DNA of 28,431 nucleotides from a virus. This document shows, in pieces, positions 4,935 through 22,472 of this stretch. The stretch lies in IMG/VR virus record IMGVR_UViG_3300025592_000048. One strand, written 5' to 3'. Each line of letters starts with the position of its first letter. Within the stretch, counting starts at the first letter, position 1. The translations under genes were made by a program, and so were the position numbers. Under the pieces are notes generated by a model. The model made no database searches and was not told where the DNA came from. It saw only the letters and a program-made list of their open reading frames with translations.

Positions 4935-5535
4935 ACAACAAATACAAGATATAAAAACAAGTGTTGAAAGAACAATTCAAGGTTCACGTACAAAACCTCA
5001 AGAGTTTACTTATGAACAAACTGGAGGTTATGTAAAACCAAATACATTATATTCAATATATTATGGTTTAAATAAAAAAGAAACTTATTTAACGGGTATA
5101 ATTGATACATCAAATTCTAAGATAATAAAAAGAGTTAAGAATAACACATTATATTCAAATTATTCAGACATAAAAACTTTAAATAGACAAATATATCCAA
5201 AAACAGCACCTGCAAATCCTTCTGAAAGTGACTATAGAATAGGCACAATAACACGTTACTTTACTAAAAAAACAAATGAAGTGAATGCTAAAGTATTTGA
5301 AATAACTGAAGATGATTTCAATAATCAAAATAATCTATATGATTATACACCTTTAGACTGGAGAATATCAGGTAAAAAATTAGAAGTAAGTAGAGATAAT
5401 TCAGCAACACTACGAAGTATACAATCAGAGTTTCCAAATATAACAAAAACAGTATTTCCATTACAACTTTGGGTACCACCTAAAAATTCACCAGATGATG
5501 TGCAAAATAAATTAAACCGTTTGAAAAAAACTTAA
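4921..5535 (+). CDS. Hypothetical protein (end of structural module)
   Basis: 204 aa ORF overlapping the upstream stop; no recognisable motif. Confidence 0.7.
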   Translation: MILTKQQIQDIKTSVERTIQGSRTKPQEFTYEQTGGYVKPNTLYSIYYGLNKKETYLTGIIDTSNSKIIKRVKNNTLYSNYSDIKTLNRQIYPKTAPANPSESDYRIGTITRYFTKKTNEVNAKVFEITEDDFNNQNNLYDYTPLDWRISGKKLEVSRDNSATLRSIQSEFPNITKTVFPLQLWVPPKNSPDDVQNKLNRLKKT

Positions 5536-5563
5536 TACTTATTACTAAATAAAAGGTTATATT

Positions 5564-5653
5564 ATGAAAATAGATGTATTAGATAAAAGATACATCGAGG
5601 TTGTAGATAAGCCTGAAACAACTAAATTATGGGCTAAAACACATTGGAAATAA
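5564..5653 (+). pseudogene. thyX: Probable internally deleted thymidylate synthase ThyX remnant (MKIDVLDKRYIEVVDKPETTKLWAKTHWK*)
   Basis: 29-codon ORF with AAAAGGTTATATT upstream. The first 16 aa match my recollection of phage ThyX N-termini (MKIxVLDKGYIEVVD) and PETTKLW matches their C-terminal helix; the catalytic core is absent. Confidence 0.6.
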
Positions 5654-6921
5654 TAGAGAAAAAATCACAACTTAAAAGATTTATAAAACGCTATAAATCA
5701 GAAGATTGTATCATAGTGCCAGTATCATGCGATGATAATAAACATCCGATGAACGACTCATTATCGTTGTTATACGTTAAACTGTTAAGTGGTAAGGAGT
5801 TTATACTACCATTTAATCATAGTGAAACATTGCATTTAGACATTCCAAATCTTGATTCAGATACAAAAAAATATACATATGATAGAAAAAAATTAAATCA
5901 TTATATTGAACTAACTAACGTAATTGATGTAAATCTAATGCAGTATATGAATGAAGGTACTCCAATAACAATAGAAGAAACTGATACAAACTCTCATAAC
6001 TTTCTAAATATGAGGTATTACAAAAAAGATAGTATAAATACAATCATTCCAGTATTGAAACATTTAGAAAAATCTCGTAAGATTGCTAAGATACTTCAAG
6101 ATGTGATAGCAAAACATAGTTCATCCGTCAATATGTCATACAATGATGAAGTTTTAGACAACCTAAGTTACATAGAAAATAACGGTATACATACAATTGA
6201 AAATACAGTATTTAGTGAATATAATATATACACATCTACAGGTAGACCGAGTAATAGATTTGGTGGTATTAACTTTGCAGCTCTCAATAAAAAAGATGGT
6301 AGTAGAAAACCATACGTAAGTCGTTTTAAAAACGGTGTATTAGTAGAGATGGACTTTGATGCGTATCACTTGAGATTGATTGCAGATAAGATAGATTATG
6401 AGTTTCCGAGTGGTTCAGTACACGAACATATGGCAGAGTTTTATGGTGTTGATTATGAAGAAGCAAAAATATTATCATTTAAATATTTATATGGTTTTAT
6501 TCCTCACGATGTAGTACAAATGAATCCATATTTCAGTAGAGTTTATGATTATATTGAAGAGCTATGGAGGGAGTATAATTCAAAAGAATTTATCGTTTCA
6601 GATATTTATAATAGACGATTACATAAGAAAAATTTAGGTGATATGAATGCTAATAAATTATTCAATTACACGATTCAACTTATGGAAACTGAAAATAATA
6701 TGAGGGCGTTAACAAGGTTAATACCTGAAATAAAGGATTACAAGAGTAAATTAATACTTTACTCGTATGATAGTTTTTTACTTGATTATAATATAGAAGA
6801 TGGTTTAGATTATCTAAAGAAAGTCAAAAGGATATTAGAACAAGATGATAAATATCCAGTTAAAGTAAGTTGGGGATTAAATTATCACGAAATGAAAGAT
6901 ATTACAGAGAAGTTTATATGA
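5644..6921 (+). CDS. Compact, divergent family A DNA polymerase-like protein
   Basis: TGRPSN (TGRLSS equivalent), motif A MDFDAYHLR, SVH (DIH), motif B AKILSFKYLYG, IQLMETE, motif C SYDSF; degenerate N-terminal exonuclease-like region. TTG start is uncertain. Confidence 0.85.
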   Translation: MEIIEKKSQLKRFIKRYKSEDCIIVPVSCDDNKHPMNDSLSLLYVKLLSGKEFILPFNHSETLHLDIPNLDSDTKKYTYDRKKLNHYIELTNVIDVNLMQYMNEGTPITIEETDTNSHNFLNMRYYKKDSINTIIPVLKHLEKSRKIAKILQDVIAKHSSSVNMSYNDEVLDNLSYIENNGIHTIENTVFSEYNIYTSTGRPSNRFGGINFAALNKKDGSRKPYVSRFKNGVLVEMDFDAYHLRLIADKIDYEFPSGSVHEHMAEFYGVDYEEAKILSFKYLYGFIPHDVVQMNPYFSRVYDYIEELWREYNSKEFIVSDIYNRRLHKKNLGDMNANKLFNYTIQLMETENNMRALTRLIPEIKDYKSKLILYSYDSFLLDYNIEDGLDYLKKVKRILEQDDKYPVKVSWGLNYHEMKDITEKFI

Positions 6922-8276
6922 TTAAAAATCTAAATGAAATATTAAAAGAATGGGCATATCGTGTAGATAATGGACAACCTAATCCAAAGAAATCTGCACA
7001 CCTATATCACCTTTCTGAAATACTGATTGAGTATAAATGGCCATTTGAAGTTATATATGAACTTTTAGATAATATAGAAAATGGTAAAGATATTTTAAAA
7101 GAAGTAAAAACTAATCGTACAGAAGATTTACACGAGATATTTTTTGCTATAGCGTTTGCTGGTGGTGATATTAGTAAGGCAACTGATTTAAGTGGTTTGA
7201 AACAAGTTATCAATAGGTTAAAATTAAAGTTAGATAATAAATCTAAACACATAGAAACATTAACAAAGTTTGATAAAGTGGAATCATTTCCTACGAAAAA
7301 AGATATACAATTATATAACGATGCAACCATTCTTGCTAAAAGAACACATACATATTTAAAAAGAAATAATCTAAAACCATCGAGTGTATCAAGAGTTTTT
7401 GGAACTGGACCGGGTGGAACTAAGATGATTGCAGATGTAGTTATTAAACTTTCAGGTGGTGAAATAGTATCAGTTTCATTAAAATATAAAAAAGGACAAT
7501 TTAGTAGTTTATCAATTCCAATATTAGTACAAAAACTGTTTGGATTAAAATTAGATAAGGGTTTATTGAAGGATATGTACAAACAAGGTTACAAAAGTGA
7601 GATAGATACGGCATTTCAATATTACCAGCTTGCAACGATTGCAAATTATAAAGATGTAGAGGTTGGGGTTGGTAAGTATACTGAGGGTGATAAGAAAGCG
7701 TTAGACGATAGTTCATTTACAGTTAAATCTACTTGGATGGATTATCTAAATACGTCAGTAATATCAACAAAAGGAAGAAGTGCACTTAGTCATCTATATC
7801 ATCACCCTGAGAATAAATCAGCTAAAGCAGTTCACTCAAAAATGAAAGGTCAACTTTTAAATAATGCAATAGATAATTTTTTTGAGAGTAAAAATACGGG
7901 ATTAGTTAAGAACTTAGAAGACGCTATAATTTATATAATACGAGCCGAACCCAAAACAAATTATTTGTATATAGCTGATGGTGGGAAAAAGTTTGCATTA
8001 ATACCATCACAAGAAAGTATACGGGGTAAAAAATATACCTTTAAATATGACGCAAAAACTAACGATGATGGTGTTATGGCAACAGCAGATTATATATACG
8101 ATGTTGAAGTTAGTGTTAATGGTATAAAAGCATTTACTTTTGACATTACGTGGAGATTTGCTGGAAACGCTGGACAATGGGATGGTGATTTACACCATAA
8201 AGGTGGTAAAATTACCTTTCACGGTGGATTTTCTAAAGCGTTTGGGTTACCAGATATTCCAAAGGATATGAAATAA
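6918..8276 (+). CDS. PD-(D/E)XK/restriction-endonuclease-like protein with a distinct N-terminal module
   Basis: ATG at 6918 overlaps the polA stop (ATGA), so it is preferred to the TTG at 6870. EDLHE...IADVVIKLSGGEIVSVSLK fits an E...AD-x10-SxSLK nuclease core. Confidence 0.5.
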   Translation: MIKNLNEILKEWAYRVDNGQPNPKKSAHLYHLSEILIEYKWPFEVIYELLDNIENGKDILKEVKTNRTEDLHEIFFAIAFAGGDISKATDLSGLKQVINRLKLKLDNKSKHIETLTKFDKVESFPTKKDIQLYNDATILAKRTHTYLKRNNLKPSSVSRVFGTGPGGTKMIADVVIKLSGGEIVSVSLKYKKGQFSSLSIPILVQKLFGLKLDKGLLKDMYKQGYKSEIDTAFQYYQLATIANYKDVEVGVGKYTEGDKKALDDSSFTVKSTWMDYLNTSVISTKGRSALSHLYHHPENKSAKAVHSKMKGQLLNNAIDNFFESKNTGLVKNLEDAIIYIIRAEPKTNYLYIADGGKKFALIPSQESIRGKKYTFKYDAKTNDDGVMATADYIYDVEVSVNGIKAFTFDITWRFAGNAGQWDGDLHHKGGKITFHGGFSKAFGLPDIPKDMK

Positions 8277-8277
8277 T

Positions 8278-8694
8278 ATGAAAACACAACTACTATGTAC
8301 ATTCACTAAACGAAATCATTTCAATGAGACTATAGATATTATTATAGCTTGTAATGATATCGTATTCAATAAAATTTATGTATTCTCAAATGAGAATGAC
8401 CCTCATCAATTAATCTGCACGTATAACGTAGAATTTGATGAAGATTTTGTACAAGGTATTCAAGACACAATCTCACTTCACAGAAAAAAGAATACAAACA
8501 CACTTTATACTATAAATGCACTGAATGATTTAATTCGTGAACTAAACGATGGTAAGTTAGATAAAAGATTTCCTATAGATTGGGAAAATTATAAGAATTG
8601 TCTATTGCTTACAAATGAGAATGGTCTCAATAAAATACCAACAAGAATTTATACCATAGTAGACGTAACAACTTGGGATAAAACAGAAAAATAA
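8278..8694 (+). CDS. Hypothetical phage protein upstream of ssb
   Basis: 138 aa, with motif HRKKNTNTLYTINALN; function unknown. Confidence 0.75.
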   Translation: MKTQLLCTFTKRNHFNETIDIIIACNDIVFNKIYVFSNENDPHQLICTYNVEFDEDFVQGIQDTISLHRKKNTNTLYTINALNDLIRELNDGKLDKRFPIDWENYKNCLLLTNENGLNKIPTRIYTIVDVTTWDKTEK

Positions 8695-8790
8695 ATTGTA
8701 TTTTCAGAAATCTGATTATACTTATTTATGTATCAAGGTTATACTTGATTGAAAAATACTAATTAAACAAATAAATAATGGAGAATAAAA

Positions 8791-9549
8791 ATGGATTTAA
8801 ACGCAATCAAAAATCGTCTTAGTCAACTTCAGACTACAAACACTCGAACATCAAATCTTTGGAAACCACAACCAGGTACACAAGTACTTAGAATTGTTCC
8901 TTATAAATTTAATCAGGACAATCCTTTTATTGAGTTGTACTTTCATTATGATTTAGGTGGAAAGAATTATCTTTCACCGATTTCATTTGGTAGACCAGAC
9001 CCTATTGAAGAGTTTGCACAGAAACTAAAATCAACAGGTTCTAAAGAAGACTATCGTCTTGGTAGAAAAGTAGAAGCGAAAATGAGAACTTTTGCTCCAG
9101 TCGTAGTACGTGGTGAAGAGAATCAAGGTGTTAAGTTTTGGGGATTTGGAAAAACAGTTTATCAAGAACTTCTTTCTATAATCGCAGACCCAGACTACGG
9201 TGATATCACAGACTCAGTAAGTGGTCGTGATGTAGCGGTAGAGTTCAAAACAGCTGAAGAGACAGGAAAGAATTTTCCTTCGACATCAATTAGGGTTAAA
9301 CCTAATCAAACTCCGATTACGGAAGACGCAGCTGCATTAGATACTATTAATGAATCACAAAAGAATATTACTGAAATCTATCAGGAACTTTCTTATGATG
9401 ATTTAACTCAAGCTCTTAATGATTATCTTAATGGTGGTTCAACTGAAACTAAAAAAGAAGAAACACCTAAAAAAGAAAAACCAGTAGTAGCAAATACTAA
9501 TAGTACATCAGATACAACAGCAACGTTTGACGACTTATTCAATAACTAA
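8791..9549 (+). CDS. ssb: Single-stranded DNA-binding protein, T4 gp32-like
   Basis: LWKPQPG...LRIVP...PFIELYFHY, KFWGFGKTVY, DITD...GRD, and an acidic tail ending TFDDLFNN; GGAG RBS. Confidence 0.85.
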   Translation: MDLNAIKNRLSQLQTTNTRTSNLWKPQPGTQVLRIVPYKFNQDNPFIELYFHYDLGGKNYLSPISFGRPDPIEEFAQKLKSTGSKEDYRLGRKVEAKMRTFAPVVVRGEENQGVKFWGFGKTVYQELLSIIADPDYGDITDSVSGRDVAVEFKTAEETGKNFPSTSIRVKPNQTPITEDAAALDTINESQKNITEIYQELSYDDLTQALNDYLNGGSTETKKEETPKKEKPVVANTNSTSDTTATFDDLFNN

Positions 9550-9559
9550 ATAAACAAAC

Positions 9560-9629
9560 TATAGTGGGTGGCAGTCTACAGATTGAAGAACTGAGAAGGC
9601 TGTTATTGTACGCCTAACTGCCCACTATA
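9560..9629 (+). ncRNA. Candidate structured RNA element (three-way junction) between ssb and recA
   Basis: TATAGTGGG(TGG)CAGT 9560-9575 pairs with ACTGCCCACTATA 9617-9629 (13 bp, 3-nt bulge), enclosing two short hairpins. No known family recognised. Confidence 0.4.
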
Positions 9630-9644
9630 AATATAGGAGATTCT

Positions 9645-10736
9645 ATGTCAACAAGAGACGAATTGGCTGGTGTTTTAGCTGATACCATTAATAAGCAGTT
9701 CAAAGATATGAAAGTCGCTTATTTCTTAGATGGTACTGATACTACACCTACAGATATAAAAGATTTTATTTCAACCGGTAGTTCTATGTTGGATTTGGCA
9801 ATTGCCAATAAACCCAACGGTGGAATTGCTGTAGGTAGAATTACAGAAATCAATGGGTTAGAATCAAGTGGTAAATCTCTACTTGGAGCTCATATGTTAG
9901 CTGAAACTCAAAAGAAGGGTGGAGTTGCTGTATACGTTGATACAGAAACTGCAGTTAGTAAAGAGTTTTTAGAGTCTATTGGTGTAGACGTAAACAATAT
10001 GTTATATCTACATTTAGAAACAGTAGAAGATATCTTTTCAGCAATAGAAGAGATTGTTGCTAAAGTAAGAGAATCAGATAAAGATAGGTTAGTAACCATT
10101 CTTGTAGATTCACTTGCAGCTGCAACAACTAAAGTAGAGTTAGAAGCTGAGTTTGATAAAGATGGTTGGGCTACAAGTAAAGCAATCATTCTATCAAAAG
10201 CTATGAGAAAGATTACTCAAATGATTGGTAGACAAAAGATTGCTCTTGTGTTTACAAATCAACTCAGACAAAAACTCGGAGTTATGTTCGGAGACCCGTG
10301 GACTACGAGTGGTGGTAAAGCATTACCATTTCACGCATCAACACGTATCAGATTAAAAAATCTTGGTCAAATTAAAGATAAAAAGAATAACAATATTGGT
10401 ATGAAAATGAGAGCTCAAGTCATTAAGAATAGACTTGGACCTCCTATGAGACATGCTGATTTTGAACTTTACTTTGAATCAGGAATTGATGATGATGGTA
10501 GTTGGTTAAAAGTTATGAAAGAACATAACTTAGTGAAACAAGGTGGTGCGTGGTATACCATGGATAATCACGTTGGTAAAGAGCTTAAGTTTCAATCTAA
10601 AGATTGGAGTGAACAACTCAAAGATGTGAAGTTTAGAGAACACTGCTACAACTTAATTTGTGATAAAGTAATTCTTAAATATGAAAAGAATTTCGGTATT
10701 GATGATGTAGTAGTGGAAGAGGAACATAGTGAGTAA
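9645..10736 (+). CDS. recA: RecA/UvsX recombinase
   Basis: Walker A GLESSGKS, YVDTETA, LVDSLAA, FTNQLR, TTSGGKALPFHASTRIRL, IKNRLGPP; AGGAG RBS. Confidence 0.97.
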   Translation: MSTRDELAGVLADTINKQFKDMKVAYFLDGTDTTPTDIKDFISTGSSMLDLAIANKPNGGIAVGRITEINGLESSGKSLLGAHMLAETQKKGGVAVYVDTETAVSKEFLESIGVDVNNMLYLHLETVEDIFSAIEEIVAKVRESDKDRLVTILVDSLAAATTKVELEAEFDKDGWATSKAIILSKAMRKITQMIGRQKIALVFTNQLRQKLGVMFGDPWTTSGGKALPFHASTRIRLKNLGQIKDKKNNNIGMKMRAQVIKNRLGPPMRHADFELYFESGIDDDGSWLKVMKEHNLVKQGGAWYTMDNHVGKELKFQSKDWSEQLKDVKFREHCYNLICDKVILKYEKNFGIDDVVVEEEHSE

Positions 10737-11745
10737 TGAAAAATATCTTTCTATATTCGAAGAGATAAAGAAAAAAGGTGGCTCTTTAGATGACGGTAAA
10801 CCTAACGATAAAGTACTGATAATAGATGGCTTAAATACTTTCATAAGAGTATTTTCAGTTATACCAACTACTAACGATGATGGTATTCACGTTGGTGGAA
10901 TAGTAGGTTTTCTAAGAAGTATTGGTTACACTATAAATATGTTTAGACCTACTCGTGTCATCATAGTATTTGATGGTAAAGGTGGGTCTAAACACCGTCG
11001 TAAACTTTATCCAGACTATAAAGCAAAAAGAAAAACAAAGTATAGAGTAAATCGTTCATATGATTTCGCTTCTCCAGAAGATGAGAAACAAAATATGATT
11101 ATGCAATTGCAACGTATTGTTGAGTATTTAGATAATCTTCCTGTAACTGTAATGTCATACGATAATATTGAAGCTGACGATACTATAGGATATTTATGTA
11201 GACAAGTTCTTACTGAATCTGAAATTACAGTTATGTCTACAGATAAAGATTTTCTTCAATTAGCTAATGGTAGAATAAAAATATGGAGCCCTACTAAAAA
11301 GAAAATATACGATGAACAGGCTGTATTAGATGAATTTGGTATATCATCTCATAATCTTATTTGGTATAGAGTATTAGACGGTGATAAATCAGATAACATA
11401 AAAGGTGTAAAAGGCTTAGGTTTAAAAACTATACAAAAAAAATTGCCGTTTTTGAAAGAAAACCGTATAGTTAATATAGATGAAATTATTACTGAATTAC
11501 CAGAATCAAAAGATGTTATAGAATTAAATTACAAACTAATGCAATTATCAGACGTACACATATCAGCCTCAACAAAAACAAAAATACTTGATAGAACCAG
11601 GCAACCTATTAATAAGTTAATCAAATTTCAATTTCAAAAAATGTTTTTAGAAGATAAGTTATATTCAGCACTTCCAAATCTTGATAGTTGGTTACTTACC
11701 AATTTCAATCAGTTAAATCACTACGCAGAAAAAACATATGAGTGA
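10729..11745 (+). CDS. 5'-3' exonuclease / RNase H (FEN-like, T4 rnh-like)
   Basis: LIIDGLN, VFDGKGG...R...YPDYKAKR, IEADD, STDKDFLQL, LDGDKSDNIKGVKGLG (H3TH). Confidence 0.93.
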   Translation: MSNEKYLSIFEEIKKKGGSLDDGKPNDKVLIIDGLNTFIRVFSVIPTTNDDGIHVGGIVGFLRSIGYTINMFRPTRVIIVFDGKGGSKHRRKLYPDYKAKRKTKYRVNRSYDFASPEDEKQNMIMQLQRIVEYLDNLPVTVMSYDNIEADDTIGYLCRQVLTESEITVMSTDKDFLQLANGRIKIWSPTKKKIYDEQAVLDEFGISSHNLIWYRVLDGDKSDNIKGVKGLGLKTIQKKLPFLKENRIVNIDEIITELPESKDVIELNYKLMQLSDVHISASTKTKILDRTRQPINKLIKFQFQKMFLEDKLYSALPNLDSWLLTNFNQLNHYAEKTYE

Positions 11746-13105
11746 AACTTTAACACAATTCGGAACGTCCTTTCAATCTAAAATTATTGCTGCTTTACTA
11801 AGTGACGTAAAGTTTATACAAACTATTAGTGATATATTAGAACCATCTATGTTTGATTCAGATTCTAATAAGTGGTTAGTTAAAGCTGTACGAGATTATT
11901 ATTATGAGTATAAAAAACAACCTACACTTGAAGTTATTAAATATAAGATAGATGAAATAGACAATGATGTACTTAAATCGGGTGTAGTAGATAAGTTAAG
12001 AGAAGTTTGGAAAAACATAGAAGCTACAGATTTAGAATTTGTACAATCAGAAACACTTGACTTTTGTAAAAATCAAACATTAAAAGGTGCTATACTTGAA
12101 TCTGTTGATTTATTAGAACGACACGATTATGATGGTATAAAATCTATTATAGATGAGGCTATGAAAGCTGGTACTACACGAGATTTAGGACACGATTATA
12201 TTGTATCATTAGAAACACGACTTGCAGAATCAGCCAGAGTAACAGTTAAAACACCGTGGGATGTAGTTAATGATATAATGGATGGTGGTTTAGGTCACGG
12301 TGAACTTGGAGTGATTGTTGCTCCTGCTGGTATTGGTAAATCTTGGACATTACAAGCATTAGGTGCTGGAGCGTTAAAAGAGGGTAAAACGATAATTCAT
12401 TACACTTTAGAGTTAAATGAAAATTATGTCGGTTTACGATATGACTCTATATTTACAGGAGTTACTACTGCTAATATAAAATATTATAAAGACGATGTAC
12501 AAGCTAAATTATCAAAACTTCCAGGTAAATTACTAATCAAGTACTTTCCAACTAAAGGTGCTAGTGTACAAACAATCAGTTCTCATTTAAAACAGATTGA
12601 AATAAGTGGTGATAAACCAGATATGGTAATAGTTGATTATGCTGATATACTAATGCCTACAGGAAACTTTAGAGAGAAGAGACACGCTATAGGAACTATC
12701 TATGAAGATTTAAGAGGGTTAGCTGGTGAATTAGAAATACCAATATGGACAGCTTCTCAAGCTAATCGTTCAGCTCTCGAAGAAGATGTAATTGGGGCTG
12801 ATAAGGTTGCAGAAGATTATAGTAAAGTTATGACTGCTGACTTTGTTATGAGTATGAGTAGAAAAGTAGAAGATAAGATTGCTAATACAGGTAGATTTCA
12901 CGTAATAAAAAATAGATTTGGAATTGATGGTGTTACGTATCCAGCTACAATAAACACAAATATTGGCCAAGTTCAAATATTTGAAGGTAGTAGTCAGTTT
13001 GGAAAAAATGTACAAGGTAAGATGAATAATAGCGAAGAGTTTTTAAGAAAAGAATTGGCAAACAAATATAAAGATATGGAAAAAAATATTGAAGGATTTG
13101 AATAA
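11738..13105 (+). CDS. dnaB: Replicative DNA helicase, DnaB/T4 gp41-like
   Basis: Walker A APAGIGKS, HYTLEL, VIVDYAD, WTASQANR, KNRFG. Confidence 0.93.
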   Translation: MSETLTQFGTSFQSKIIAALLSDVKFIQTISDILEPSMFDSDSNKWLVKAVRDYYYEYKKQPTLEVIKYKIDEIDNDVLKSGVVDKLREVWKNIEATDLEFVQSETLDFCKNQTLKGAILESVDLLERHDYDGIKSIIDEAMKAGTTRDLGHDYIVSLETRLAESARVTVKTPWDVVNDIMDGGLGHGELGVIVAPAGIGKSWTLQALGAGALKEGKTIIHYTLELNENYVGLRYDSIFTGVTTANIKYYKDDVQAKLSKLPGKLLIKYFPTKGASVQTISSHLKQIEISGDKPDMVIVDYADILMPTGNFREKRHAIGTIYEDLRGLAGELEIPIWTASQANRSALEEDVIGADKVAEDYSKVMTADFVMSMSRKVEDKIANTGRFHVIKNRFGIDGVTYPATINTNIGQVQIFEGSSQFGKNVQGKMNNSEEFLRKELANKYKDMEKNIEGFE

Positions 13106-13177
13106 ATCTTAAATTAAGTTTAGTATATATTATATTTATGTTTGTTACGGGAATAAGATTACAAGGAGTTCAGGTTA

Positions 13178-15227: not shown

Positions 15228-17726
15228 ATGTATCAGGCCATCTATTACGATAGAAAATCAAATACAATGAATGTTTGGGATGACAAATTTGGTCATCAAA
15301 CATTCCGTTATAAGAAATATGCTTATGTTAAAAACAAAGCAGGAACTTATATATCATTATATGGTGATAAACTAAAACGAGTTACAGATTGGGATAAAGA
15401 CCAACCAGAACTATTTGAATCAGATGTCAATCCTGAAATCAGAGTATTAGTAGATAACTATACAGATTCAGATGATGTATCAGTAGGTCATCGTACAATG
15501 ATATTTGATATTGAGGTTGAGGTAACTGATGGATTTCCAGATGTAAATAAAGCTGAAAACAAAATAACAGCGATTGGTTTTAATGATTGTCTTCTTGATA
15601 AATATTATTGTTATGTACTTGATGAAGATGGTAAACTAAATGATGATTTTGATGATGATGTTATAGTTGAATCATTTACAAATGAATATGATTTACTACA
15701 TCAATTTTTTATAAAATATAAAGAAATACAACCAACTATACTAACAGGTTGGAATGTTGAATTTTTTGATATAACATACTTGTACAATAGAGCTCAACAA
15801 ATAGTAGGTCAGACTATAGCAAACTTTTTATCACCCATTGGGATTGTTCAATGGAGTGAATTTGTTAAACGATATAAGATAGCTGGTGTTAGTGTTTTAG
15901 ATTATTTAGGTTTATATAAAAGATTTACATTTAGTGAACAACCTTCATATAGATTAGATGCAATAGGTGAATTTGAAATAGGTGAAAAGAAAGTTGCTTA
16001 TGAAGGTACTCTTAATGAGTTATATGAAAATGATTTGAATAAGTTTGTTGAATACAATATTCAAGACGTTAGACTAATTAAGAAACTTGATGATAAGTTA
16101 GATTTTATTGGGATTGCACGTGGTTTAGCTCATCTTGGACACGTTCCATATGAGAATGTATTTATGTCATCGAGATATTTAGAAGGTGCTATTTTAGTAT
16201 ACCTTAAAAAGAATAGTATTGTAGCTCCGAATAAACCTAGAAAATTTGACCATTCAAAATTAGAAAAATTTGTAGGAGCATATGTCCAGGAACCACAGCG
16301 TGGAAAACACGATTGGGTGTATGACTTAGATATAACATCGATGTATCCGTCGTGTATAATGTCTTTAAACATATCTCCTGAGACTAAATTAGGTAAAATA
16401 GAAGGTTGGAATCCTGAAGAGTTTCTTAAAAAAGGTAATAAAAAAACATATTCGATAACACATAATACTAAAGTTTTAGGTAAGTATACTGAAACTGAGT
16501 TGAAAAATATGTTAGATAATGAAGATTTAGGTGTTGCAACAAACGGTGTGATGTATCGTTCAGATAAAAATGGATTATTACCAGCGTTATTAAGAAAATG
16601 GTTTGATGAACGAGTTGAATATCGTAAGCTATCAAAGAAATTTTATGAAGAGGGTGAAATAGCTAAATCAGAATACTTTGATAGAAGACAATATCTACAG
16701 AAAGTTTTGTTAAATAGTTTATATGGAGTTTTAGGTTTACCAACATTTAGATTTTATGATTTAGATAATGCTGAAGCTGTTACATATACAGGTCAATCAT
16801 TAATTAAGTTTACAAAGAAGATAGCAAACTCGTTTTATAATAAAGAACTAGGTGATACGAAAGACCACTGTATCTACATTGATACAGATTCGGTATTCTA
16901 TTCGGCTACACCTCTTGTAGAGAAAAGATTTCCTGAGTTAGATATTAAGAACGTAGATAAGATGTCTAAAGCGATTTTAAAGATTGCAGATGAAGTACAA
17001 ACATATTTAAATCAGAGTTACAATTATTTTGCAAAGAAGTTCTGTAATTTAGATAAACATAGATTTGATATTAAACAAGAAGTTATTGCAAAGAGTGGTC
17101 TATTCGTAACTAAGAAAAGATATGGATTAAAAATTATCAACGACAATGGTAAGAAAGTTGATAAGATGATGGTAAAAGGATTAGATACAGTTCGTTCAAG
17201 TTTCCCTACAGCTATGAGAACAATGCTATCTAAAGTATTAGAAGATATTTTAATGGATGTACCTCAACCAAATTTAGATAAGTTTATTGTTAATTTTAAA
17301 AATAGTATGAAACTTATGGAATTTGATAAAATTGCTATACCAACAAGTGTTAAAGGTATTAGTAAATATCACATAAGAGACGGTCAGATATTTAACTCGT
17401 ATAAGTTGGGAACTCCTGTTCACGTTAAGTCATCAATATTTTATAATGATTTTTTAAAGTACAAGAAAATATCAAATAGATATTCTCCAATAGCAAACGG
17501 TGAAAAAATTAAATGGGTTTATTTAAAACAAAATCCATTGGGTTTGAATACAATAGCCTATAAAGGGTATGAAGACCCAATTGAGTTATTAAATTTTATT
17601 CGACAATATATAAATCACGACAAACTTTATAAACAAGCTTTACATAAAAAGATAATGATGTTATATGAAAGTATGAATTGGAGTGAACCAACCGATTCTT
17701 CTAAAACTATAGAAAGATTTTTTTGA
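15228..17726 (+). CDS. polB: Family B DNA polymerase (gp43-like) with proofreading exonuclease
   Basis: ExoI FDIE, ExoII GWNVEFFD, ExoIII YNIQD; motif A DLDITSMYPS, motif B KVLLNSLYG, motif C YIDTDS; KKRY; C-terminal KTIERFF. Confidence 0.97.
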   Translation: MYQAIYYDRKSNTMNVWDDKFGHQTFRYKKYAYVKNKAGTYISLYGDKLKRVTDWDKDQPELFESDVNPEIRVLVDNYTDSDDVSVGHRTMIFDIEVEVTDGFPDVNKAENKITAIGFNDCLLDKYYCYVLDEDGKLNDDFDDDVIVESFTNEYDLLHQFFIKYKEIQPTILTGWNVEFFDITYLYNRAQQIVGQTIANFLSPIGIVQWSEFVKRYKIAGVSVLDYLGLYKRFTFSEQPSYRLDAIGEFEIGEKKVAYEGTLNELYENDLNKFVEYNIQDVRLIKKLDDKLDFIGIARGLAHLGHVPYENVFMSSRYLEGAILVYLKKNSIVAPNKPRKFDHSKLEKFVGAYVQEPQRGKHDWVYDLDITSMYPSCIMSLNISPETKLGKIEGWNPEEFLKKGNKKTYSITHNTKVLGKYTETELKNMLDNEDLGVATNGVMYRSDKNGLLPALLRKWFDERVEYRKLSKKFYEEGEIAKSEYFDRRQYLQKVLLNSLYGVLGLPTFRFYDLDNAEAVTYTGQSLIKFTKKIANSFYNKELGDTKDHCIYIDTDSVFYSATPLVEKRFPELDIKNVDKMSKAILKIADEVQTYLNQSYNYFAKKFCNLDKHRFDIKQEVIAKSGLFVTKKRYGLKIINDNGKKVDKMMVKGLDTVRSSFPTAMRTMLSKVLEDILMDVPQPNLDKFIVNFKNSMKLMEFDKIAIPTSVKGISKYHIRDGQIFNSYKLGTPVHVKSSIFYNDFLKYKKISNRYSPIANGEKIKWVYLKQNPLGLNTIAYKGYEDPIELLNFIRQYINHDKLYKQALHKKIMMLYESMNWSEPTDSSKTIERFF

Positions 17727-17751
17727 TTTTGAGAAAACAAACTAATATATA
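17723..17751 (+). promoter_or_regulatory. Candidate sigma70-like promoter (TTGATT-N17-TATATA) within an (AT)8 tract, upstream of the clamp gene
   Basis: Hexamer spacing read directly; the AT-rich context makes a chance match possible. Confidence 0.35.
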
Positions 17752-17786
17752 TATATATATGGTTATAAACATTAACAGGAGATGTT

Positions 17787-18521
17787 ATGATAAGTAAACA
17801 AAAACTGGTCCGTTTCATTAATAAGTATTATTTGAACGGCACAGTAGGTTCTGCTGTATTCAACAGCAAAACAAGCAATCAACAATTAAGTACACGATTT
17901 ATTTCAGGAGATAAAAGTCTCTTAGGTGAAGTACATATGGATAAATGGGACTATGAAGACGCTGATATAGGTGTCTATGATACTGAACAATTATTGAAAT
18001 TGATATCAGTTTTAGATGACAATATTGAACTTTCAATAAATAAAACAGGTGATACTGCTTTTTCAATTGGGTTAAATGACGCATATTCAGTAATCACTTA
18101 TATGTTAAGTGATACATCTATCATTAACGAACCACCTCAGATGAAAGTAATTCCTGAATTTGAATTAGCATTAGATGTCACACCACAGTTTATCAGTAAA
18201 TTTATATCTGGTAAGTCAGCGTTAAGTGAAACTGATACATTCACAGTAATTACAGATGAGACAAGTGGTAAGACAAAGTTAGTTATTGGTTACTCTGCAG
18301 TTAATACGAACAGAGTTACAATTCCAGTCACTACTTCAACGTTTGAAAATATAGATAATATTTCATTCAACGCGAACTTATTTAAAGAAGTACTTATTGC
18401 AAATAAAGATTGTGAAAGTGCAACATTACAAGTATCGAGTGAAGGATTAGCTAAGATTAGTTTTAAAATAGATGATTTTACTTCTACATATTGGTTAGTT
18501 GCGGCTAGTGAAGTTGATTGA
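17787..18521 (+). CDS. Sliding clamp (gp45/PCNA-like)
   Basis: 244 aa beta-rich protein between PolB and the clamp loader; ends ATLQVSSEGLAKISFKIDDFTSTYWLVA, typical of clamp C-termini; AGGAG RBS. Confidence 0.75.
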   Translation: MISKQKLVRFINKYYLNGTVGSAVFNSKTSNQQLSTRFISGDKSLLGEVHMDKWDYEDADIGVYDTEQLLKLISVLDDNIELSINKTGDTAFSIGLNDAYSVITYMLSDTSIINEPPQMKVIPEFELALDVTPQFISKFISGKSALSETDTFTVITDETSGKTKLVIGYSAVNTNRVTIPVTTSTFENIDNISFNANLFKEVLIANKDCESATLQVSSEGLAKISFKIDDFTSTYWLVAASEVD

Positions 18522-19435
18522 TGTCAAATACTTTATGGGTTGAAAAATATAGACCTTCAAATGTAGATACATATATCGGTAACGAACACTTACTTGAGAA
18601 AGTATCAATATATCTTGAGAGTGGAGATTTACCACACCTCTTACTATACGGTAAAGCTGGTACAGGTAAAACCACTCTCGCTAAGATTCTTGTAAAAAAT
18701 ATAGAATGTGACTATTTGTACATAAATGCAAGTGATGAAAACAATGTAGATACAGTTAGAACTAAAGTTAAGAACTTTGCTTCTACTATCGGTTTCAAAG
18801 ATATGAAAGTTATTATACTTGATGAGTGTGATTATATTACACCAAATGCTCAAGCGGCTCTTCGTAATCTTATGGAAACATTCAGTAAACATTGTAGGTT
18901 TATCTTGACTTGTAATTATGTAGAACGAATTATTGACCCAATACAATCTCGGTGTCAAAGTTTTCAGATAATTCCACCGTCTAAAGTTGAAGTTGCAAAA
19001 CATCTTCATAATATTTTAGTACAAGAGAACGTGATTAGTAAACCTGAAGATATTAAAGTATTAGTAGAGAGTGGATACCCTGATATTCGTAGGGTTATAA
19101 ACTCTGCTCAAAGAAACGTAGTTAAGGGTAAACTTAAATTAGATACATCAAGTATCATTCAAAATGATTACAAACTTAAATTACTTAAAATTTTAGAAAC
19201 ACAGAATAAAAAGAATGCATTTAATGAAATCAGACAATTATTGGCAGACAATAAGATTACAGATTATGCTGACTTGTTTCGTTTATTATATGATGAAGTA
19301 GATTCATATGGTAAAGGTCACGTAGCAGAATGTATTTTAATTATTGCTAGATATGAATTAAGTGATTCACAAGTAGTGGATAAAGAAATCAACGTTATGG
19401 CTATGTTAATAGAATTATTAGGAGTTATCAAATGA
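18521..19435 (+). CDS. Clamp loader AAA+ subunit (gp44/RFC small subunit-like)
   Basis: LWVEKYRP, Walker A GKAGTGKT, INASDE, Walker B ILDECD, ALRNLME, IQSRC. ATG at 18521 overlaps the upstream TGA. Confidence 0.95.
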   Translation: MSNTLWVEKYRPSNVDTYIGNEHLLEKVSIYLESGDLPHLLLYGKAGTGKTTLAKILVKNIECDYLYINASDENNVDTVRTKVKNFASTIGFKDMKVIILDECDYITPNAQAALRNLMETFSKHCRFILTCNYVERIIDPIQSRCQSFQIIPPSKVEVAKHLHNILVQENVISKPEDIKVLVESGYPDIRRVINSAQRNVVKGKLKLDTSSIIQNDYKLKLLKILETQNKKNAFNEIRQLLADNKITDYADLFRLLYDEVDSYGKGHVAECILIIARYELSDSQVVDKEINVMAMLIELLGVIK

Positions 19436-19719
19436 GTATGCATCCAAAAGGGAGAATACCAAAAAGAGAAAAACAAGTACAAGTTGACTTGAAACAAGCA
19501 GATACTATTAAATGTAATGATTGTAATAACTATTTATTTATAACATCATTTATATTAAAAAAACTATCCGCAATAGTTTCACCAAATGGTCAAGAAGCTT
19601 TAATTCCTGTTCAAGTATATAGTTGTGGAAATTGTGGTAAAGTAGCTGAGGGAATGTTAGAGGGTGCTGGTTTGGAAGAAGAAACAAAGTCAGATAATTT
19701 TCCAAGTTTGGACATATGA
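19432..19719 (+). CDS. Zn-ribbon small protein
   Basis: CNDC...CGNC; ATGA overlaps at both ends. Confidence 0.75.
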   Translation: MSMHPKGRIPKREKQVQVDLKQADTIKCNDCNNYLFITSFILKKLSAIVSPNGQEALIPVQVYSCGNCGKVAEGMLEGAGLEEETKSDNFPSLDI

Positions 19720-19889
19720 GTGAAAAAAGAAAAACAATATTCACTAACAAATCCTCCGCTGGAAAAGGGGATTCACCGAGAGTTGGTATAAGTTATGAAG
19801 AGTGGGAAAAAAAATACGAAAAAATCTTTGGTAAAAAGGAAGAATCTATTCGACCACATCAAACAGATAACAGCGGTTCAAAACCCTAA
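19716..19889 (+). CDS. 57-aa protein MSEKRKTIFTNKSSAGKGDSPRVGISYEEWEKKYEKIFGKKEESIRPHQTDNSGSKP (missing from the ORF track)
   Basis: ATG overlaps the upstream stop (ATGA). AGKGDSPR...YEKIFGKK resembles a recurrent small phage protein motif as I recall it. Overlaps the next gene by 95 nt. Confidence 0.6.
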   Translation: MSEKRKTIFTNKSSAGKGDSPRVGISYEEWEKKYEKIFGKKEESIRPHQTDNSGSKP

Positions 19890-20313
19890 GTATTGGGAAG
19901 AGATATCAGACGAAGATAAAAAGTCTTGGTCTAATTATATGACTCATAGATTCCTATCTATGAATATGGATTGGGTTGAATTAGTAAATGAATTACAAAA
20001 GTATAACCTGAAACCAAAAGAATTATACAAATTATACACAAATGTTTTACCAAAGAAAAAACAATGGTTAAAATATACAAAAGGGAGAAATCAAATGGCA
20101 CATCCAAATTGGTTAATCAACATAGTTGCACTACACGAAGAAGTAAGTAAAAAAGAAGCATATGATATGGTTGAACTATATATGCTAACTGAAGGTGGTA
20201 TGTTAGAGTTAGGAGAACTTTGTCAGAAATGGGGAGTTGAACCTAAAAAGATAGCATCTGCAGGTCTAAATGTACTTGGTTCTATAGGTGGATACACCGC
20301 AGGAAATGAATAA
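19795..20313 (+). CDS. Clamp loader second subunit, T4 gp62-like
   Basis: WSNYMTHRFLSMNMDWVELVNE...LYTNVLPKKKQWLKY resembles the gp62 core; located just after the gp44-like gene. Confidence 0.65.
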   Translation: MKSGKKNTKKSLVKRKNLFDHIKQITAVQNPKYWEEISDEDKKSWSNYMTHRFLSMNMDWVELVNELQKYNLKPKELYKLYTNVLPKKKQWLKYTKGRNQMAHPNWLINIVALHEEVSKKEAYDMVELYMLTEGGMLELGELCQKWGVEPKKIASAGLNVLGSIGGYTAGNE

Positions 20314-20371: not shown

Positions 20372-20755
20372 ATGAAAGTTATAAAAGACTCTAAGAACGC
20401 TTCTGTACCTAAGAATGAACGGTCAATTATAGAAATGATGGAAGAAGAATGGCCAGAGATGACAGAAGAGTTCAAGAAGATACAACGAGAACAATACGAA
20501 TTGTTCTTACATAAACAACACGACTATGGTCCTGGCAATATTAGTGTTGGAACACAATTACAAACACCAGAAGAAGTGAAGCTATCACTTACTGGCTTGT
20601 GGTTCAGGATTAATGACAAATGTCAGAGATTAAAAACCTTATTGATGGGTGATAGAGAATCAGCCGTAGATGAACCATTAGAAGATGCATATTTAGATAT
20701 ATCTAATTATGGTATAATGGCTACCATTGTAAAGAATGGTAAGTGGGGAAAATGA
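20372..20755 (+). CDS. DUF1599 / nucleotide-modification-associated domain 1 protein
   Basis: LFLHKQHDYGPGNI...FRINDKCQRL...EPLEDAYLDISNYGIM (KxxDYG...DK..R...ED...D..NY pattern). Confidence 0.8.
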   Translation: MKVIKDSKNASVPKNERSIIEMMEEEWPEMTEEFKKIQREQYELFLHKQHDYGPGNISVGTQLQTPEEVKLSLTGLWFRINDKCQRLKTLLMGDRESAVDEPLEDAYLDISNYGIMATIVKNGKWGK

Positions 20756-21615
20756 ATAGAATAAGTTATAGTCAGTATAATCAATGGGTTACGTGTCCAT
20801 ATAAGTGGAAACTTAATTACATTGATAAGCTAAGTGTTTGGACAGATAGTATTCATACATTGTTCGGAACTTCAATGCACGAAGTTCTTCAGACGTATCT
20901 TACTGTAATGTATAATGATACTATTAAAATGGCTGATGCTCTTCCTTTAGACGAAATGCTGTTACATAGAATGAAAAAGAATTACAATACTATTATGGAA
21001 AAGAATGGTGGTGAAGTATTTTGTGAACAATCTGATATGGAAGAATTTTACAATCACGGATTACTGATATTAGAGTGGTTTAAAAAGAAGCGTAATATGT
21101 ATTTCAGTAAGAAGGGTTATGAGTTAGTTGGTATAGAAGTTCCTGTTGATTATGACTTACCAAATAAGATTAAGTTTATTGGTTATATAGATATAGTTCT
21201 ACACGATACTGTAAGAGATAGATATAAAATTATAGATATCAAGACTTCCACGATGGGTTGGAATAAGTGGATGAAAGCTGACAAGACAAAGACAGACCAA
21301 CTATTATTATATAAACATTTTTATGGTGCTCAACACGATATTCCAGTAGATAAAATTGATGTAGAATACTTTATTGTAAAACGTAAACTATATGAAAAGG
21401 TAGATTTTCCACAACGTAGAGTTCAGACATTTCAACCTGCTAGTGGTAAACCGAGTATAAATAAATTAATGAATAACTTAAATCACTTTATTGAAGAATC
21501 TTTTATCGATGGAGAATATAATTTAGAACATAATTATATTAAACAACCCTCTAAAAAGAACTGTAGGTATTGTGTGTTTAATCAAACAGAACATTGTGAT
21601 GTAGGAGTTAAATAA
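20752..21615 (+). CDS. PD-(D/E)XK exonuclease, Cas4/AddB/RecB-like, probable 4Fe-4S
   Basis: ISYSQY...CPYKW, FGTSMHE, IEVP, GYIDIV, IIDIKTS, QLLLY, C-terminal CRYC-x6-C. ATG at 20752 overlaps the upstream stop. Confidence 0.88.
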   Translation: MNRISYSQYNQWVTCPYKWKLNYIDKLSVWTDSIHTLFGTSMHEVLQTYLTVMYNDTIKMADALPLDEMLLHRMKKNYNTIMEKNGGEVFCEQSDMEEFYNHGLLILEWFKKKRNMYFSKKGYELVGIEVPVDYDLPNKIKFIGYIDIVLHDTVRDRYKIIDIKTSTMGWNKWMKADKTKTDQLLLYKHFYGAQHDIPVDKIDVEYFIVKRKLYEKVDFPQRRVQTFQPASGKPSINKLMNNLNHFIEESFIDGEYNLEHNYIKQPSKKNCRYCVFNQTEHCDVGVK

Positions 21616-22434: not shown

Positions 22435-22442
22435 TATATATT
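22414..22442 (+). promoter_or_regulatory. Sigma70-like promoter TTGACT-N17-TATATT upstream of the RHH gene and glycosyltransferase operon
   Basis: TTGACT 22414-22419 and TATATT 22437-22442 with canonical 17-nt spacing; same hexamers as the two dyad promoters. Confidence 0.65.
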
Positions 22443-22472
22443 TATATATGTATATATTATTAGAGGTTTTAT

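Follow-up and report, generated by a model that had tools for sequence, protein, structure and literature searches.

A thumbless divPolA1-family phage polymerase derived from Pol I, most likely accessory to the main replicase

The phage polymerase family divPolA1 was described in 2024 by computer analysis (Yutin et al. 2024, Virol J 21:200; PMC11348598). In that paper, 14 phages carrying divPolA1 were counted, the truncated thumb and the dead exonuclease of the protein were already reported, and it was found together with a regular polymerase belonging to family A, B or C, the context of the regular polymerases being less clearly replicative in some genomes (PMC11348598). Other reduced family A enzymes have been described. 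CCPol keeps the Glu gate and a Phe (E174, F225) and only three exonuclease helices (Bebel et al. 2020, PMC7581432). The TV-Pols have a two-helix antiparallel thumb and an RxxxK motif in the fingers, and are never linked to nuclease domains (PMC2579912).

The window analysed here is the whole stretch of 28,431 nucleotides of the viral record IMGVR_UViG_3300025592_000048. It contains the following polymerase gene of a marine phage:

5644..6921, plus strand: divPolA1 gene, 425 aa, starting with TTG where close homologues have ATG

By sequence comparison, ORF 5644-6921 is a member of the divPolA1 family. It was 31.7% identical to the exemplar, gene 1 of Flavobacterium phage immuto, over 91% of its length (tblastn, E 9e-54), and family profile A2 matched both immuto gene 1 (E 6.9e-128) and Microcystis phage Mel-JY01 (E 9.5e-85). 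No match to the ORF was found in Pfam (E <= 0.01), PF00476 included, and no family in PHROGs; a single-sequence phmmer search of the PDB returned only Taq, with an E of about 2. Some homologues do carry PF00476 among their precomputed Pfam matches.

The family was found in 6 of 50,697 phage records, and metagenomes yielded 1266 clusters at 50% identity, a number because of which its features cannot be put down to chance. When prokaryote genomes were scanned with family alignment A1, only three MAG contigs were recovered (Pelagibacter, Gracilibacteria and Omnitrophota bins), and these are probably mis-binned phage DNA. Residue conservation was assessed on a set of 134 diverse relatives (30-58% identity). 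Because divPolA1 had already been named, the added value of the present analysis is limited; what is new here, beyond the 2024 paper, are the fixed pocket substitutions, the linked 138-aa gene, and a clamp and loader that travel with PolB and not with divPolA1.

Fold, missing thumb and polymerase pocket

The elements of the protein, all encoded on the plus strand, are listed below with their correspondence to Klenow residues:

5644..6048, plus strand: N-terminal DEDD/DnaQ-type 3'-5' exonuclease fold, residues 1-135, canonical acidic set absent
6052..6183, plus strand: residues 137-180, a pair of long helices with the conserved E178-x-x-G181 at their end, start of the polymerase domain
6184..6222, plus strand: thumb stump, 11 residues, G181-Y193 (about 75-95 in Klenow)
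6238..6246, plus strand: TGR motif, with R201 invariant (R668)
6352..6375, plus strand: motif A, DFDAYHLR, with D237 (D705) and, at the E710 steric-gate position, H242, both invariant
6454..6495, plus strand: motif B / O-helix, with Y271 (R754), K275 (K758), F279 (F762), Y283 (Y766) and G284
6664..6693, plus strand: helix with N341 (N845) and the invariant Q345 (Q849), the family-specific invariant E348, and E350 (91%)
6757..6786, plus strand: motif C, LYSYDSFLLD, with Y375 (H881) and D376 (D882) invariant and S377 (E883) at 81%

An AlphaFold2 model built from the 134-sequence alignment (pLDDT 97.4) displayed a Klenow-like assembly of exonuclease fold, palm and fingers. Klenow was its best Foldseek match (E 6.5e-18), and superposition on the Bst Pol I large fragment (VIA) gave a Z of 29.1 and an rmsd of 3.2, with 385 of the 425 residues aligned to a chain of 566 residues. 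Pol I structures in general aligned at Z 24-29 over 385-405 residues. The likeness to T7 RNAP (Z 11.8, 236 residues) and to mitochondrial RNAP (Z 12.9) was confined to the core, the RNAP alignments covering 233-236 residues. In a search independent of Foldseek, family A DNA polymerases were recovered at Z 20-25 and single-subunit RNA polymerases at Z 8.7-12.9. A superposition on Klenow and T7 RNAP had been proposed in the preliminary description; its outcome is a Klenow-like fold, much nearer to DNA polymerases (Z 20-29) than to T7 RNAP (Z 11.8). A Foldseek search of BFVD returned full-length PolAs only, with no equally compact viral model among the top 50.

The 134-member profile was aligned with E. 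coli Klenow at E 4.6e-12 with the motifs in register. This alignment falls into two pieces: profile positions 160-200 pair with Klenow chain residues 194-235, the segment containing RIERNGVKID, and chain residues 236-308 are skipped, which corresponds to 73 thumb residues in the family consensus. About 17 further thumb residues are absent from ORF 5644-6921 itself, one of the 15 among 134 sequences that form the shortest-stump subgroup, with 11-13 residues. The G181-Y193 linker measures 11-30 residues in all 134 members. The thumb loss announced in the preliminary description is therefore real, 11 residues standing against about 75-95 in Klenow, and only its figure of over 100 aa for the missing part was slightly generous. 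The positions given there for IENNG (6172), the end of the TGRPSN block (6255), D237 (6352), H242 (6367-6369) and D376 (6769) agree with the translation.

Residues 1 to about 180 matched the exonuclease domains of RNase D, ExnV1, Rrp6 and WRN at Z 10-12. The earlier failure to see an ExoI acidic pair was borne out in the 134 members, in which the D-x-E pair is not conserved: 63% of them have Asp at the D30 position, and position 32 varies. Another cluster is conserved in this fold, namely H34, H59, [D/E]61 and D95. Inactivation of the exonuclease is also stated in PMC11348598.

Nine residues are invariant in 134/134 members: R201, D237, H242, K275, Q345, E348, Y375, D376 and G411. Five of them (R201, D237, K275, Q345 and D376) are aligned by the profile with Klenow R668, D705, K758, Q849 and D882, so that the retention of both catalytic Asp and of the motif B Lys, noticed from the single sequence, extends to the whole set. 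The equivalents of the minor-groove and sugar residues F762, Y766, Q849, N845 and R668 are kept at 95-100% (F279 96%, Y283 99%, N341 95% or more). Two hallmarks of family A, the thumb subdomain and the Glu gate (DYSQIELR), are both absent, and H242 occupies the E710 position in 134/134 members. The collection of homologues suggested in the preliminary description thus found a linker of 30 residues or less together with a gate His in every sequence. The His at the gate, the Tyr in place of the motif B Arg and the SYDS of motif C had been pointed out from the window's copy; in the profile they align with E710, R754 and H881-D882-E883. At the R754 position, Tyr is found in 78% and Arg in 5% of the family.

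Since E710, R754, H881 and E883 are replaced by His, Tyr, Tyr and Ser, normal dNTP binding and catalysis should not be assumed for divPolA1. That H242, Y375 and E348 are fixed in the alignment is suggestive of a specialised substrate or chemistry and not of a merely weakened Pol I.

Replication module and linked genes

The genes downstream of divPolA1 in the window are the following:

6918..8276, plus strand: variable gene X, 452 aa, between divPolA1 and sm138, its ATG overlapping the polymerase stop codon
8278..8694, plus strand: sm138, 138 aa, no known family, motif HRKKxTNTLYTINALN, strictly co-occurring neighbour of divPolA1
8791-9549, plus strand: gp32-like SSB, first gene of the conserved downstream array (8791..13105)
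9645-10736, plus strand: RecA/UvsX, same array
10729-11745, plus strand: Pol I-type 5'-3' exonuclease/FEN, same array
11738-13105, plus strand: DnaB-like helicase, same array
15228-17726, plus strand: PolB with exonuclease domain, first gene of the main replicase set (15228..20313)
17787-18521, plus strand: sliding clamp, main replicase set
18518-19435, plus strand: clamp-loader large subunit, main replicase set
19795-20313, plus strand: clamp-loader small subunit, main replicase set

The order of the module is thyX remnant, divPolA1, X, sm138, gp32, RecA/UvsX, FEN and DnaB. The SSB-RecA-FEN-DnaB succession is common to the cultured phages immuto and Mel-JY01 and to those IMG/VR loci that are long enough to show it; among all 80 divPolA1 loci from IMG/VR, gp32 was present in 62, RecA in 56, FEN in 45 and DnaB in 37. 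The polymerase is the fastest-evolving gene of the module, with a median identity to the window's copy of 39% versus 51-70% for its neighbours. A promoter and terminator scan of positions 4800-13200 remained at chance level.

The genes sm138 and divPolA1 were found in an identical set of 6 of 50,697 phage records; among the 80 IMG/VR loci, sm138 was present in 70, the remaining 10 ending 2258 bases or less past the polymerase. The sm138 product shares 41% identity with immuto gene 2 and 38% with the Mel-JY01 neighbour. It gave a best E of 0.16 against PDB sequences, nothing usable in Pfam at E up to 1 or in the ESM Atlas, and no sequence match to any SSB or OB family. Prediction of a complex between divPolA1 and sm138, run without controls, scored 0.00, a value that speaks neither for nor against binding. 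Longer proteins containing sm138 came down to 9 single-cluster matches (8 on a single contig, 1 on two); in some of them the Pfam domains are those of genes nearby (RecA, FEN), in others they are unrelated. These matches are probably miscalls and no systematic fusion was seen. Gene X is 450-790 aa long elsewhere, is conserved only over its first 50 residues or so, and is absent from immuto, Mel-JY01 and three IMG/VR loci (L039, L040 and L071). Copies from 10 loci had no meaningful Pfam matches.

The presence of PolB, clamp and loader near the polymerase, already noted in the preliminary description, was confirmed at 15228-20313. Mel-JY01 likewise encodes a PolB, 47% identical to that of the window, together with a clamp and a loader. 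In the complete genome of immuto, divPolA1 is accompanied by a full-length PolA of 777 aa, whereas a PolB, a clamp and a clamp loader are lacking. The divPolA1 gene is thus kept independently of the replicase type, in line with the earlier view that it does not encode the main replicase.

A candidate DnaG/Toprim-type primase ORF was detected in two complete genomes (immuto and Mel-JY01) and in one 73%-complete relative. That of immuto is annotated as a DnaG primase and the Mel-JY01 match, at 17.1 bits, lies below the Pfam cut-off. A Toprim search of four IMG/VR fragments, 36-63% complete, gave none, absence from fragments being uninformative.

Possible roles of divPolA1

Taken together, we consider it probable that divPolA1 is an accessory polymerase derived from Pol I (Klenow), most likely devoted to short-patch synthesis beside the main replicase. 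The protein would be a Pol I reduced to an exonuclease-fold domain without canonical catalytic acids, a palm and fingers, from which the thumb was deleted and in which both metal-binding Asp, the O-helix Lys/Phe/Tyr and the Arg/Asn/Gln reading the minor groove at the primer terminus were kept. Its activity is most likely still the dNTP-dependent extension of DNA primers on DNA templates, without proofreading, and because it has little duplex grip it should add only few nucleotides at a time. Bulk synthesis would be carried out by the swappable PolB-clamp-loader set, divPolA1 acting as an accessory within the replication-recombination module. Since it is kept while the phages swap their main replicase among families A, B and C, it should do something that the replicase cannot. 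It could fill gaps after the separately encoded Pol I-type 5'-3' exonuclease has removed primers, the two proteins forming a kind of split Pol I, or it could extend 3' ends in recombination or repair intermediates.

Several observations run the other way. Besides the replaced and the fixed pocket residues, the FEN gene is not adjacent to divPolA1, and primers are removed in T4-type phages with no second polymerase involved. The fastest evolution within the module is also unusual for a core housekeeping step.

There is a modest chance that divPolA1 and sm138 form a two-subunit enzyme with an activity new to characterised family A polymerases, in very abundant aquatic phages. The small basic sm138 would then supply in trans the nucleic-acid grip lost with the thumb, and the His/Tyr/Tyr/Ser/Glu pocket might serve de novo initiation, the use of ribonucleotides or of sugar- or base-modified nucleotides, or the extension of RNA primers. 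In the last case the pair would be a Pol-alpha-like hand-off enzyme. The phages concerned form a marine and freshwater group.

A two-component initiator or primase like CCPol-MP is unlikely. In such a pair, divPolA1 would be catalytic and sm138, perhaps with gp32, would hold the single-stranded template, chains being started de novo or primers being passed to the replicase. The co-occurrence of both genes without exception (6 of 50,697 records, 70 of 80 loci and the other 10 too short), an sm138 more conserved than the polymerase and carrying a basic HRKK motif, and the SSB and DnaB downstream in the same array are compatible with this role, and CCPol, too, combines a shortened thumb and a truncated exonuclease domain with a small partner (PMC10061031, PMC7581432). 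However, immuto (annotated), Mel-JY01 (weak, sub-cut-off) and the 73%-complete relative each have a candidate gene for a conventional primase of the DnaG/Toprim type, and CCPol retains the equivalents of E710 and F762 whereas the divPolA1 gate is a His. Moreover, the equivalents of R668, N845 and Q849, which read an existing base pair at the primer terminus, are 95-100% conserved, and sm138 matches no SSB or OB family in sequence. The priming role put forward in the preliminary description is therefore weakened by the candidate primases and by the residues that CCPol keeps, even if a strictly linked small gene was indeed found.

It is improbable that divPolA1 is the core replisome polymerase, the constant partner of DnaB and gp32, with the regular polymerases as auxiliaries. 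The constancy of divPolA1 and of its replication context, when the regular polymerase varies among A, B and C and has a less clearly replicative context in some genomes (PMC11348598), would fit. Against it, divPolA1 has neither thumb nor proofreading, shows no clamp dependence (immuto lacks clamp and loader) and evolves fastest in the module, and the window's PolB lies in the same module with its own clamp and loader.

No more credit can be given to an enzyme that uses ribonucleotides, whether to make RNA primers or as an RNAP-like protein, in which the lost Glu gate and the YDS of motif C would admit rNTPs. The exchange of E710 for His in 134/134 members and the Y-D-S motif C are consistent with this idea; the motif C of T7 RNA polymerase is H-D-S. 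Nevertheless, F279 and Y283 conform to what is seen in DNA polymerases, Q345 corresponds to Q849, the resemblance to RNA polymerases is limited to the core (Z 11.8-12.9 over 233-236 residues, versus Z 24-29 over 385-405 residues for Pol I), and neither a promoter-binding N-terminal domain nor a specificity loop is present. His is also bulky, and in the high-fidelity Pol III alpha a His (H760) has been proposed as the steric gate (PMC8485763). The possible ribonucleotide tolerance that the preliminary description had drawn from the gate His is not supported, given these pocket residues, the fold and the Pol III alpha example.

A catalytically inactive scaffold or DNA-end-binding protein keeping the polymerase fold is most improbable: the R754, H881 and E883 positions, important in Klenow catalysis, are substituted, but no exchange of either metal-binding Asp, of the O-helix Lys or of the minor-groove Arg and Gln is seen in 134 sequences of only 30-58% identity, and dead enzymes normally lose such catalytic residues.

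As an accessory polymerase or otherwise, divPolA1 ranks among the most stripped-down derivatives of Pol I in nature and is very common in ocean and lake viromes. Its job, once known, would reveal how synthesis in lagging-strand replication, repair or recombination is organised in large aquatic phages, and what a family A active site can do without a thumb and with a His replacing the Glu sugar gate. Given its compact size of 425 aa and unusual substrate rules, such a polymerase could also serve as a laboratory enzyme.

Comparison with known systems

The TV-Pols (Iyer, Abhiman, Aravind 2008, PMC2579912) are also viral and have a family A-like core of minimal size, which includes two catalytic Asp and a conserved hairpin Arg. 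Identity with them was rejected, divPolA1 having no thumb, Tyr (78%) more often than Arg (5%) at the Arg position, and an exonuclease fold. The divPolA1 profile found no candidate in Microcystis phage Ma-LMM01 (AB231700), a TV-Pol carrier, a comparison of little weight made with a loose first-pass filter. Identity with a T7-like single-subunit RNAP was rejected as well, the likeness being core only (Z 11.8) and the N-terminal domain an exonuclease fold. The divPolA2 of barbaviruses is another second, divergent PolA beside a regular PolB and without a canonical thumb; it is set apart, by description only, by an unrelated N-terminal globular domain, a variable neighbourhood and RNAP-like structural matches (PMC11348598).

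The CCPol-MP pair of SCCmec and the PolA-SSB pairs likewise contain a shrunken A-family polymerase with a reduced thumb (PMC7581432, PMC10061031). In these pairs as with divPolA1, a small protein without sequence family adjoins the polymerase and a replicative helicase gene lies further downstream. Unlike CCPol with its E174 and F225, divPolA1 has a His at the gate, the Phe being retained. The CCPol-MP partner is an OB fold whereas sm138 is known from sequence alone, and the CCPol-MP/PolA-SSB pairs reside on Bacillota mobile islands without another primase whereas divPolA1 resides in large lytic phages with a DnaG-type primase.

Klenow-type Pol I (E. coli, Bst, Taq) shares with divPolA1 the order of exonuclease fold, palm and fingers, the TGR motif and motifs A, B and C. 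The equivalents of Pol I R668, D705, K758, F762, Y766, N845, Q849 and D882 are kept, but divPolA1 has no thumb and no exonuclease acids, and E710 is replaced by His, R754 by Tyr, H881 by Tyr and E883 by Ser.

The text of PMC11348598 is silent on the gate His, the Tyr/Tyr/Ser substitutions, E348 and the linked 138-aa gene. The protein of the window differs from the divPolA1 exemplar by its sequence (32% identity) and by the 452-aa gene inserted before the partner gene. It has the same size as the exemplars described in 2024, the same truncated thumb, acid-less exonuclease fold and retained palm residues, and, as in those phages, the same SSB-RecA-FEN-DnaB array lies downstream and a regular polymerase coexists with it.

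Family A fold and the missing thumb

The window is an AT-rich (about 30% GC), 28-kb fragment of an uncultured virus, with a completeness estimate of 14%. The divPolA1 polymerase is encoded by the ORF 5644-6921 (+), which starts with TTG and codes for 425 aa. Since close homologues have ATG at the equivalent position and the N-terminus is conserved at the protein level, the gene boundaries of the preliminary description are right. Its motif positions also check: IENNG at 6172, the end of TGRPSN at 6255, and D237, H242 and D376 at 6352, 6367-6369 and 6769, respectively.

The protein alone matched no Pfam or PHROG family and barely grazed Taq Pol I (phmmer, E about 2). Relatives were numerous: 2795 matches in a word-indexed search and, in an exhaustive profile search, 1266 clusters at 50% identity, nearly all of 418-471 aa. 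The profile of alignment A2, made of 134 diverse members (30-58% identity to the query), matched E. coli Klenow at E 4.6e-12 with every motif in register.

Residues of divPolA1 and their Klenow equivalents in the A2 profile alignment
TGR: R201 = R668
DFDAYHLR on DYSQIELR: D237 = D705, H242 = E710
H260 = H734
Motif B: Y271 = R754, K275 = K758, F279 = F762, Y283 = Y766
N341 = N845, Q345 = Q849
Motif C: Y375-D376-S377 = H881-D882-E883

The two metal ligands, the O-helix Lys, Phe and Tyr and the H734 equivalent are thus retained, as are the equivalents of R668, N845 and Q849, which read the primer-terminal base pair from the minor groove. The alignment consists of two pieces between which Klenow chain residues 236-308 are skipped, and these 73 thumb residues are missing even from the family consensus. 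The stretch from G181 to Y193 counts 11 residues in the window's protein and 11-30 in all 134 members, confirming the thumb loss described from the sequence.

An AlphaFold2 model from a deep alignment (pLDDT 97.4, pTM 0.93) had Klenow as its best Foldseek match (E 6.5e-18), and the 566-residue chain of the Bst Pol I large fragment was aligned over 385 of the 425 residues (Z 29.1, rmsd 3.2). In a Foldseek-independent structure search, family A DNA polymerases gave Z 20-25. The T7, mitochondrial and N4 RNA polymerases reached just Z 8.7-12.9 over 228-238 aligned residues of the shared core. Residues 1 to about 180 alone matched DEDD exonucleases (RNase D, ExnV1, Rrp6, WRN; Z 10-12). Profile alignment, linker lengths and structural matches point together to a modelled architecture of exonuclease fold, two linking helices, then palm and fingers, with the thumb deleted. 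The protein belongs to the family A fold, although two hallmarks of these polymerases, the thumb and the Glu gate, are absent and the Pfam threshold was failed.

Gene neighbourhood and replicase independence

The genes of the window are, in order:
5564-5653 (+): thyX remnant, a 29-codon ORF
5644-6921 (+): divPolA1
6918-8276 (+): gene X, 452 aa
8278-8694 (+): sm138, a 138-aa protein
then gp32-like SSB, RecA/UvsX, Pol I-type 5'-3' exonuclease (FEN), DnaB-like helicase, class II ribonucleotide reductase
then PolB, clamp, clamp-loader large subunit, a 95-aa ORF, clamp-loader small subunit
20372-28431 (+): DUF1599 'nucleotide modification associated' protein, PD-(D/E)XK nuclease, SLOG/YspA-like protein and at least three glycosyltransferases, a set which suggests DNA or virion glycan modification

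In the remnant, residues 1-15 match the N-terminus and 17-29 the C-terminus of intact ThyX, so that about 200 codons have been deleted in frame. In related loci, intact genes of 222-234 aa, which match Pfam Thy1 at E 3e-35 to 5e-43, are found upstream of divPolA1 and in some cases directly abut it (L033:9342-10010, L017:1176-1871; also L019:2420-3112 and L020:8710-9414). Gene X, without family match, separates divPolA1 from sm138 in most relatives (450-790 aa) and is absent from the cultured phages immuto and Mel-JY01 and from three IMG/VR loci. It evolves fast, and conservation is confined to roughly the first 50 residues (ILxEWAYRVxNGxPD...H); in L016, the only longer relative inspected, the middle is a low-complexity stretch with many charged residues.

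By tblastn against 50,697 phage records, full-length divPolA1 relatives were found only in four Flavobacterium phage immuto records, Mel-JY01 and one uncultured 484-kb phage, and sm138 occurs in exactly the same six. The gene directly after divPolA1 is 41% (immuto) and 38% (Mel-JY01) identical to sm138, which was also seen in 70 of 80 IMG/VR loci (L009-L088), the other ten all ending at most 2258 bases past the polymerase. It carries the invariant pattern HR..N..Y..N..N (motif HRKKxTNTLYTINALN) and matched nothing in Pfam, PHROGs, PDB sequences or Atlas. Across the 80 loci it is better conserved than divPolA1 (median identity to the window's copy 53% versus 39%); the values are 63% for gp32, 70% for RecA, 51% for FEN and 60% for DnaB. 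Of the genes in its module, divPolA1 evolves fastest, yet its active-site residues are invariant.

This strict pairing and the SSB/helicase context would suit an initiator formed by divPolA1 and sm138 in the manner of CCPol-MP. We nevertheless consider this, and with it the priming role proposed in the preliminary description, unlikely. The residues reading the primer terminus are kept, CCPol retains E710/F762 where divPolA1 has His at the gate, and relatives carry primase genes of their own: an annotated DnaG in immuto, a 313-aa Toprim ORF in a 73%-complete relative and, below the Pfam cut-off, a weak Toprim match in a 333-aa ORF of Mel-JY01. The primase comparison rests on these three genomes, smaller fragments being uninformative.

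The order from divPolA1 to DnaB is common to the window, immuto and Mel-JY01 and is kept in the 80 IMG/VR loci as far as each reaches. Searches of immuto for PolB, clamp and clamp loader found none, its replicase candidate being a 777-aa PolA, whereas Mel-JY01 has a PolB 47% identical to the window's, with clamp and loader. The clamp set therefore accompanies PolB. divPolA1 depends on neither and is not redundant with full-length PolA. These results agree with the earlier view that it is unlikely to be the replicase. That it should be the true core enzyme is quite unlikely for a polymerase lacking thumb, proofreading and clamp. In immuto (MW353176; L001/L005/L008) the single PolA replacing the PolB set adjoins GroES/GroEL; divPolA1, sm138, SSB, RecA, FEN, DnaB and DnaG are kept, and a full 7-deazaguanine (DpdA/QueC-F) DNA modification set is present. 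In a scan of 185,579 prokaryotic species genomes only three 16-18 kb contigs matched (L094-L096), from Pelagibacter, Gracilibacteria and Omnitrophota bins; they are probably phage DNA that was placed in the wrong bins because of its composition.

Active-site pocket and proposed role

R201, D237, H242, K275, Q345, E348, Y375, D376 and G411 are invariant in the 134 sequences, and F279, Y283, N341, R221, Y342 and E178/G181 are at least 95% conserved. At the R754 position 78% have Tyr and 5% have Arg; at that of E883, 81% have Ser, the remainder having Ala or Gly. Because of their invariance, the gate His and motif C Tyr are fixed family traits and not local decay, and the catalytic aspartates are under strict selection. 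The gate and the Y-D-S motif are suggestive of ribonucleotide use. However, histidine has also been proposed as the steric gate in Pol III alpha, the sugar pocket otherwise resembles that of DNA polymerases and the fold is distant from that of RNA polymerases; ribonucleotide use is thus very unlikely and the tolerance suggested earlier was not borne out. A dead scaffold is highly improbable, contradicted by the invariant catalytic residues.

The exonuclease-fold domain of the 134 members has no conserved ExoI D-x-E, as had been noted for the window. Within this otherwise variable domain, four polar positions located at 5743-5928 are conserved: H34 (95%), H59 (98%), position 61 (always Asp/Glu, E61 here) and D95 (96%). 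They follow strands 1, 3 and 4 and, by analogy with known DnaQ topology, would sit on the sheet edge of the old exonuclease site. Instead of simply marking a dead domain, they could make up a remodelled site that binds a metal or a 3' end.

The retained metal ligands, O-helix residues and H734 and, above all, the R668/N845/Q849 equivalents argue for a template- and primer-dependent DNA polymerase. Thumb deletion in Klenow is established to cause loss of duplex grip (cited in PMC10061031); its loss here would take away most of that grip, so synthesis is expected to be distributive and, the exonuclease acids being missing, unedited. The probable role, in our view, is that of an accessory polymerase for short-patch synthesis within the replication-recombination machinery, which fits the replicase-swap evidence and the place of the gene in the module. 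Paired with the Pol I-type FEN, which is encoded by a gene of its own, divPolA1 would constitute a 'split Pol I' for Okazaki-fragment maturation; equally, it might elongate 3' ends at lesions or in intermediates made by UvsX/RecA. The observation first made on the window is confirmed and its interpretation supported in part.

Comparison with described polymerases

Yutin et al. (2024, Virol J 21:200, PMC11348598) described the family as 'divPolA1', with immuto gene 1 as its named exemplar, in 14 phages of 155-190 kb; they reported a conserved palm, truncated thumb, inactivated exonuclease, a regular family A, B or C polymerase encoded beside it and a conserved replication gene array downstream. 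In the library searched, divPolA1 appears in no later paper. The window's polymerase is homologous to the exemplar, shows all these features of the protein and its gene context, and is a newly added member of a family known and described computationally, an unusual and very abundant enzyme. New beyond that description are the strictly fixed H/Y/Y/S/E pocket, the strictly co-occurring sm138 and the association of clamp and loader with PolB, not divPolA1.

TV-Pols still have a two-helix thumb and RxxxK, and none carries a nuclease domain (PMC2579912). This identity was rejected for divPolA1, in which the thumb is deleted, Tyr mostly occupies the RxxxK Arg position and a nuclease fold is attached; the profile found nothing in Ma-LMM01, weak evidence given the loose first-pass filter. 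Although CCPol-MP is not demonstrably closer to divPolA1 than Pol I is, divPolA1 may, by analogy, work like it.
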